64,000 nucleotides of DNA, from assembly GCF_988243305.1 (NCBI RefSeq), contig NZ_OZ547136.1; one strand, given 5' to 3'. This document shows positions 2,276-2,530 of the stretch, piece after piece; the stretch's first letter is position 1, and every line of letters starts with the position of its first letter. The position numbers and the translations under genes were made by a program. The notes below the pieces were generated by a model that was given only the letters and a program-made list of their open reading frames with translations, had not been told where the DNA came from and made no database searches.

Positions 2276-2425
2276 TTACCTGGACGTGCAGGCCATGAGC
2301 GCAGCCACCTCCTTATCACCGTCCCGGAACCGCAGTTCGTAGAGCGTTTGTCGGGTCAGGAGTGTGAATGTCAGAATCGTAATACAGATAATGAGCAGAC
2401 ACACCACCAGAGGGTTGTGCTTCAT
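2276..2425 (-). CDS. hokB: type I toxin HokB (49 aa)
   Basis: Hand-translated minus-strand ORF MKHNPLVVCLLIICITILTFTLLTRQTLYELRFRDGDKEVAALMACTSR; Hok-family single-TM toxin. Confidence 0.9.
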   Translation of the reverse strand: MKHNPLVVCLLIICITILTFTLLTRQTLYELRFRDGDKEVAALMACTSR

Positions 2426-2483
2426 AGCCTTTCTCCTTGCCGGATGGCGGGTAAGAGGCTAACATCTGAATTGCTAGGTTCAT
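2316..2483 (-). CDS. mokB: MokB, overlapping reading frame that couples hokB translation (55 aa)
   Basis: Minus-strand ORF MNLAIQML... in a different frame, starting 58 nt upstream of hokB start and ending inside hokB; classic hok/mok arrangement. Confidence 0.7.
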   Translation of the reverse strand: MNLAIQMLASYPPSGKEKGYEAQPSGGVSAHYLYYDSDIHTPDPTNALRTAVPGR

Positions 2484-2530
2484 TCGTTGGCCTCGGTTGA
2501 TAGAAATATCGGTCGGGGCCTTCGTCTTTC
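2470..2530 (+). ncRNA. sokB: SokB antisense RNA (approximate position)
   Basis: Inferred from hok/sok family architecture: antisense RNA complementary to the mok translation-initiation region; boundaries not determined from sequence. Confidence 0.35.

Follow-up and report, generated by a model that had tools for sequence, protein, structure and literature searches.

A chromosomal hokB/mokB/sokB toxin-antitoxin locus in Escherichia coli and the predicted alternative folds of its mRNA

The window analyzed in this study, a stretch of 64,000 nucleotides from contig NZ_OZ547136.1, corresponds to the part of the Escherichia coli chromosome between aldA and narU/yddK and is syntenic with K-12, as determined by annotation comparison. 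The gene order cybB-rydC-ydcA-hokB-trg-ydcI was found in K-12 orientation when compared with the annotations of K-12 and of the nearest relative, with ydcA (2029-2202) and trg (2824-4464) as the neighbours of hokB. The region 2150-2650 was matched in 5414 of 5426 complete E. coli genomes, and hokB is annotated there by RefSeq in the listed records. Identity of 100% over this region was observed for one genome only, that of strain Z1323HEC0462 (NZ_CP148331.1). Base-by-base comparison and k-mer mapping of the full window against NZ_CP148331.1 revealed scattered SNPs and two small indel offsets.

The toxin gene hokB (2276-2425, minus strand) starts with ATG and encodes a membrane toxin of 49 amino acids in which C9, C14, Y29, and C46 are all present. 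A preliminary description of this DNA had claimed hokB together with an overlapping mokB frame, and both were found in place by a small-ORF listing and by alignment to K-12. The alignment to K-12 hokB that it had called for showed full identity to b4428 at the protein level (49/49 amino acids), with two nucleotide differences, both synonymous. HokB matched Pfam PF01848 HOK_GEF with an E value of 1.1e-23 (83 bits, cut-off 22) and the NCBIfam Hok subfamily NF007279 with 100.8 bits (cut-off 73). The identity to K-12 includes the N-terminal transmembrane segment MKHNPLVVCLLIICITILTFTLL..., C14, and C46; the roles of the Hok residues Cys14 and periplasmic Cys46 have been described (PMC12214031). 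Toxicity and persister formation are known for K-12 HokB (PMC12214031 for function and editing, PMC5668327 for the persistence link), and by analogy with this identical protein, HokB of the window strain would be expected to depolarize the membrane and to be toxic.

Codon Y29 (TAC, 2341-2339) is part of a CUACGAA loop (2336-2342, minus strand), with the TadA A-to-I site (Y29C) at position 2340. The alignment revealed a site sequence identical to that of K-12 (site A1491986), and in the fold the codon was placed in a predicted 10-nt loop with three closing base pairs. In K-12, A-to-I editing of hokB has been demonstrated and raises toxicity (PMC12214031). Judged from its sequence, the editing site at 2340 is conserved in the window strain. 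On the opposite strand, the small ORF yncP (2230-2298, plus strand; 22 amino acids, K-12 b4774) runs antisense to the 3' end of hokB and to the terminal hairpin there. Three of its 22 residues differ from K-12, and in one of the sampled strains the start codon is TTG, which suggests a weak constraint on the yncP peptide.

The leader frame mokB (2316-2483, minus strand; 55 amino acids) overlaps hokB out of frame. Its AUG is located at 2483-2481, 7 nt downstream of the mok Shine-Dalgarno sequence (SD) GAGG, and the frame ends inside hok. MokB is orthologous to K-12 b1420, from which two residues differ (M7I, Y34H). Profile searches assigned no Pfam or NCBIfam family to MokB, which is expected because it is a leader ORF, and translation of mokB would permit that of hok. 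The K-12 annotation lists mokB as a putative regulatory protein, and the frame is conserved: mok and hok were open in 9/9 haplotypes of an aligned sample consisting of the window and eight other E. coli (K-12 and seven other strains). MokB might then have a function beyond that of a leader ORF opening the hok ribosome site. However, the two positions within mokB at which the nucleotide differs from K-12 each alter a Mok residue (M7I, Y34H), whereas the two within hokB, of which one is common to mokB, leave the Hok sequence unchanged. Further Mok substitutions occur in other haplotypes, MokB belongs to no Pfam or NCBIfam family, and an open mok frame is already demanded by the translational coupling of the R1 paradigm (PMC9841398). 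A regulatory MokB protein is very improbable on this evidence, and we regard mokB as the leader ORF of hokB.

The gene for the antisense RNA sokB (57 nt) was placed at 2473-2529 on the plus strand by transfer of the K-12 b4429 coordinates via pairwise alignment, with 0 differences in 57 nt (100% identity). The predicted SokB fold consists of a 12-nt single-stranded 5' tail, a 14-bp hairpin, and a U-rich tail (-22.2 kcal/mol, z -3.7), and the 5' tail is complementary to nt 88-99 of the hokB mRNA. A terminator-like site within sokB (2489-2520, plus strand) is followed by TTCGTCTTT. Upstream, a putative promoter (2437-2465, plus strand) was read by hand, with TTGCCG (2437-2442), a 17-nt spacer, and TAACAT (2460-2465); this element has 8/12 consensus matches and ends 7 nt short of the annotated +1 (2473). 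It was absent from the report of the promoter scan because 8/12 is under the scan threshold. Transcription of sokB from 2473-2529 (plus strand) is predicted from the K-12 annotation and the promoter and terminator anatomy. The position of SokB has three supports, namely the identity to K-12, the fold with its terminator-like site, and the hand-read promoter.

A covariance-model search had been proposed to fix the Sok coordinates. It returned a strong family match, Rfam RF01794 'sok antitoxin (CssrC)' at 2420-2571 (114 bits, gathering score 59, E 3.7e-25), with the full model (1-157) aligned to 152 nt of the window, a score well above chance. This match lies on the minus, hokB-sense strand, and therefore no Sok coordinates could be taken from the covariance model. 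The alignment starts with GGGUGCCUGAG, takes in the SD and AUG of mok, and stops at those of hok; reading it as the position of Sok was rejected, as a minus-strand match of 152 nt that ends at the hok AUG. What RF01794 captures in practice is the leader of the hok mRNA, from tac through the hok AUG, and not the antisense RNA of 57 nt. The match is strong evidence of membership in the hok/sok family in both sequence and structure. Automated antitoxin annotation could be misled by a 'sok' match located on the toxin-sense strand.

The same match delimits the 5' leader of the hokB mRNA, which spans 2420-2571 (minus strand) from tac to the hok start codon. Relative to model position 1 at 2571, a putative hokB promoter (2578-2606, minus strand) was inferred from sequence, with a -10 element TAGGAT (2583-2578) and a weak -35 element TTTTCG (2606-2601). 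A consensus scan missed the promoters of both hokB and sokB. Its sole match (minus strand, 2730-2701) was not adopted, being at chance level (0.8 expected) and approximately 120 nt upstream of the leader. This element on the hokB strand (2701-2730) reads TTTACA-18-AATAAT, is promoter-like, and could give rise to a 5'-extended hokB transcript.

At the other end of the transcript, a run of six U follows directly 3' of the element fbi (2209-2227 for both, minus strand), with no local hairpin upstream; the eight other haplotypes have four U. No classical local terminator hairpin after fbi was seen by sequence reading or by a terminator scan. It may be speculated that the long-range tac/fbi helix and the adjoining U-run act together as the hokB transcript terminator. 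The predicted transcription unit extends from the putative promoter (to ~2606) and the leader (to 2571) through the 3' UTR with fbi down to ~2212. The interval initially reported for the locus, 2276-2530, covers the three genes but not this whole unit (~2212-2606). Its right edge lies one base past the sokB 3' end at 2529, as obtained by K-12 coordinate transfer.

The RNA elements of the hok switch were located by folding the hokB RNA with 2571 as nt 1, either as a 360-nt form or cut at nt 320, 325, or 330. In the elements as defined for hok, end-pairing of tac and fbi closes the full-length mRNA and ucb sequesters the mok SD; 3' trimming then leads to tac/ucb and mok SD/dcb pairing, by which the RNA becomes translatable and sensitive to Sok (PMC9841398). 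In the window, tac (mRNA nt 1-12, GGGUGCCUGAGA) is located at 2560-2571, ucb or anti-SD (nt 51-58) at 2514-2521, and fbi (nt 345-356, UCUCAUGGCCCC, followed by the U6 run) at 2216-2227, all on the minus strand. The minimum free energy (MFE) structure of the 360-nt form (-138.5 kcal/mol, z -4.9) pairs nt 1-12, i.e. tac, with nt 345-356, i.e. fbi, while the mok SD (nt 78-82) is paired with nt 53-57 in ucb.

All three cuts, just past the hairpin at 2269-2249, resulted in an exchange of partners: tac (nt 1-8) paired with nt 51-57 in ucb, and the SD (nt 78-82) paired with dcb (nt 113-117). The hairpin formed by the mok SD (2494-2490) and dcb (2459-2455) occupies 2455-2494 (minus strand), is the Sok target, and occurred only in the 3'-truncated fold; in isolation, its 40 nt fold with -12.3 kcal/mol (z -3.6). 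The loop of this hairpin, CCUAGCAA (2478-2471), carries the YUNR motif CUAG, and its sequence is complementary to the initial nucleotides of the free 5' tail of SokB. The helices of the truncated form are also present in the Rfam consensus, where tac/ucb is the first helix, and tac and the SokB hairpin were invariant in the nine haplotypes. A GC-rich stem-loop, GCGCGGGGAUUUUCCCCGCGC, just past the hokB stop codon (2249-2269, minus strand) was predicted in all folds. It is probably the protective 3'-terminal hairpin of the truncated hokB mRNA, a role inferred by analogy from work on R1 hok (PMC9841398). According to these predictions, the whole hok switch is encoded and intact in the window, because the full-length and truncated folds swap partners as in the textbook system.

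The locus differs from that of K-12 by approximately 12 substitutions and a 2-nt expansion of the U-run over ~450 nt, four of the substitutions being located just upstream of the hokB mRNA +1. At mRNA nt 109 (window 2463), a G replaces the C of K-12 (C109G), and therefore the C86·C109 mismatch of the target hairpin is closed: with the C86:G109 pair restored, the hairpin reaches -12.3 kcal/mol compared to -9.0 in the K-12 form. The same substitution changes the putative sokB -10 element from TAAGAT in K-12 to TAACAT and accounts for I7M in MokB when read from K-12 to the window. At nt 354 (window 2218), in fbi, a C replaces the A of K-12 (A354C), and U4 of tac is therefore left unpaired. For the exact 61-mer around 2463 the count was at most 95, and for that of K-12 at most 3539, out of 5426 genomes; both are '≥99%' counts and upper bounds, in which partial 100% alignments may be included. 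C at 2218 was shared with one of the eight other E. coli strains sampled; this frequency of the fbi allele refers to the nine-haplotype sample only, as the neighbouring variable sites are too many for short queries.

The predicted energy of the closed state minus that of the fbi-blocked state was -14.4 kcal/mol in the window and -21.7 kcal/mol in K-12. In the full-length RNA, a closed state is predicted for both alleles, and the minority alleles in fbi and in the target hairpin are predicted to loosen the lock slightly. Since U4 is unpaired and the energies differ (-14.4 versus -21.7 kcal/mol), regulation of hokB could differ quantitatively from K-12. A more specific reading is that A354C, C109G, and the change from four to six U may together move the hokB mRNA ~7 kcal/mol along its closed/open equilibrium in silico, so that hokB would be activated more readily, or become SokB-sensitive earlier, than in K-12. 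We consider this improbable; if true, it would amount to a natural allelic difference in persister frequency.

Copies of the locus are interrupted or absent in other strains. With 2200-2600 as the query, 4502 of 5410 matching genomes covered at least 80%, and 908 of 5410 (~17%) gave a partial match only. In two of 14 evenly spaced records listed, the match stopped at window ~2498, a position that falls within sokB, with ucb on one side and the mok SD on the other. One such record was inspected: in strain SLK172 (NZ_CP017631.1, 3297-4426), an IS150-family transposase abuts the break and IS100 is next to it, a situation that recalls the hokA/C/E loci of K-12 with their IS disruptions. Strain GPEC349-628 (NZ_CM160080.1, 3013-6063) is devoid of hokB, with prophage tail-fibre and baseplate genes directly after ydcA.

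These findings bear on the question whether the window locus could be a decaying, non-functional remnant in which point mutations have disabled regulation or expression while the hok ORF is kept. IS elements or rearrangement are considered to have inactivated other hok loci of K-12 (PMC12214031), and the partial matches in ~17% of complete E. coli genomes, the IS150-family element at one break, and the strain lacking hokB fit this picture, as do the tac/fbi pairing weakened by the window allele and the weak matches of the hokB and sokB promoters. Against it, the window copy is uninterrupted and contains no insertion, its SokB is identical to that of K-12, and its HokB has the same sequence as the K-12 protein, for which toxicity and persister formation have been shown. 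Furthermore, both hokB nucleotide changes are synonymous, and none of tac, ucb, mok SD, dcb, and fbi is missing, with the expected exchange of partners in the folds. A remnant is highly unlikely in our judgement. The window strain has kept an uninterrupted hokB locus, while about one-sixth of complete E. coli genomes show a partial match only.

Two further toxin loci had been named in the preliminary description, hicA/hicB (17894-18532) and ortT (27334-27507). Both are present, and their proteins are 100% identical to those of K-12. The type II mRNA-interferase toxin gene hicA (17894-18070, plus strand; 58 amino acids, GTG start) corresponds to b4532 and matched Pfam PF07927 HicA_toxin with 30.9 bits (cut-off 27). 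The antitoxin and repressor gene hicB (18116-18532, plus strand; 138 amino acids as annotated by RefSeq) follows on the same strand after a gap of 45 nt and corresponds to b1438; its reading frame extends upstream to a further ATG at 18095, which the span given for the pair admitted. HicB matched PF15919 HicB_lk_antitox with 32.8 bits (cut-off 27) and additionally HTH_3. The product of the orphan GhoT-like, type V-related membrane toxin gene ortT (27334-27507, plus strand; 57 amino acids, b1445) matched PF10753 Toxin_GhoT_OrtT with 96.9 bits (cut-off 22.1, E 8.3e-28). HokB, HicA, HicB, and OrtT thus all scored above the curated Pfam thresholds. The neighbours are the same as in K-12 (yncJ-hicAB-ydcR and yncL-ortT-ydcY), and no ghoS-like antitoxin gene is adjacent to ortT, hence the term orphan.

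The window had also been called a toxin-dense region, which holds as a description: three toxin loci and a type VI secretion system (T6SS) effector module are found within one 64-kb window, and a functional island or defence cluster could be imagined on these grounds. The loci hokB, hicAB, and ortT are, however, 9-15 kb apart with housekeeping genes between them, and their core-genome positions are those found in K-12; variation between strains is confined to the T6SS module (37-47 kb), which stands in place of K-12 rhsE/ydcD. By our own rough count, K-12 carries ~40 toxin-antitoxin loci. With ~0.5 such loci expected per 64 kb, three represent a modest excess, recognized post hoc. The island idea was rejected because the positions belong to the core genome and are shared with K-12, and we consider a functional cluster extremely unlikely.

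The T6SS immunity genes had been described as orphans; they are actually part of a complete auxiliary PAAR-VgrG-DUF2169-effector-DUF4279 module (37349-42175). The larger segment, 37349-47640 on the plus strand, replaces K-12 yncH/rhsE/ydcD/yncI. It encodes PAAR (37349-37633), VgrG (37652-39616), DUF2169 (39632-40573), a Tox-PAAR-like effector of 377 amino acids (40566-41699), and DUF4279 (41696-42175), the last being the likely immunity gene. These are followed, likewise on the plus strand, by an ISEc1 transposase (42433-43569), an ORF without family (43572-43916), a 692-amino acid protein with a sub-threshold Peptidase_M23 match (44088-46166), a second ORF without family (46159-46674), and an ISAs1 fragment (47089-47640).

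Further differences from K-12 were observed in the window. The sRNA RydC (1795-1858, minus strand; Rfam 90.5 bits) has a G at position 13, where K-12 has an A, by which an A-U stem pair becomes G-U. The gene gapC (64-1065, minus strand), a pseudogene in K-12, is an intact 333-amino acid ORF in the window and is a type I GAPDH in the annotation of the nearest relative. From the same annotation, the 269-amino acid ORF at 25833-26642 (plus strand) was named a CatB-related O-acetyltransferase; it separates patD from yncL/ortT, and K-12 lacks this ORF, with ~100 bp between patD and yncL. In the annotation of the nearest relative, IS609 (insQ/yncK), which in K-12 lies between ydcL and ydcO, is missing from the region equivalent to the ydcL-ydcO junction (window ~12980-13010).

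The locus agrees with the hok/sok family on each feature examined computationally. The present analysis established which genes these are, their synteny and family membership, and that every RNA element is present and predicted to pair alternatively. We conclude that the locus is almost certainly the chromosomal hokB/mokB/sokB of E. coli, uninterrupted, orthologous to K-12 b4428/b1420/b4429, and most likely working as proposed in the following. The weak promoter would drive minus-strand synthesis of a stable hokB mRNA (~360 nt), from ~2571 down to ~2212. In the full-length RNA, the 5' tac would pair with the 3' fbi and ucb would sequester the mok SD, allowing neither translation nor SokB binding. 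Slow 3' trimming would strip fbi, whereupon tac would pair with ucb and the mok SD would move into the dcb hairpin, the YUNR loop of which would be the entry point for SokB. This unstable 57-nt antisense RNA (2473-2529, plus strand) would pair across the mok start region and SD, block translation of mok and hence the coupled translation of hok, and trigger cleavage of the duplex. Sok-dependent repression and duplex cleavage by RNase III are established for R1 hok/sok (PMC9841398) and are assumed by analogy at hokB. If SokB falls, or if hokB transcription rises (Obg/(p)ppGpp), Mok would be translated and HokB made. HokB would then enter the inner membrane and the membrane potential would collapse, leading to dormancy or persistence. 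Editing of codon 29 by TadA (TAC to TIC, Tyr to Cys) would permit a C29-C46 disulfide and more toxicity. Expression, processing, toxicity, editing, and the persistence phenotype of hokB are here carried over from studies of K-12 hokB and plasmid R1 hok/sok, and would be expected to apply by analogy.

The label of known systems given in the preliminary description is appropriate, as every gene named there is identical or near-identical to its K-12 orthologue. hokB/sokB, hicAB, and ortT are textbook E. coli loci, and the finding is already known. It carries little weight as a discovery, and its main worth lies in annotation: in the nearest relative, PGAP/RefSeq lists hokB without mokB and without sokB.

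The closest counterpart is the hokB/mokB/sokB locus of K-12, which has the same position (ydcA-hokB-trg), leader, tac, ucb, dcb, and TadA site as the window. The architecture and the predicted refolding from tac/fbi to tac/ucb and SD/dcb are also those of hok/mok/sok (parB) of plasmid R1, the paradigm for type I toxin-antitoxin loci. The likeness to R1 extends to an antisense RNA with a single-stranded 5' tail directed against a YUNR loop and to a toxin of the Hok family. In contrast to the plasmid-borne R1 system, hokB is chromosomal. It is tied in K-12 to persistence induced by Obg/(p)ppGpp, whereas R1 is tied to post-segregational killing. Position 29 is a Tyr in hokB that is RNA-edited to Cys, whereas in R1 the Cys is encoded in the DNA.
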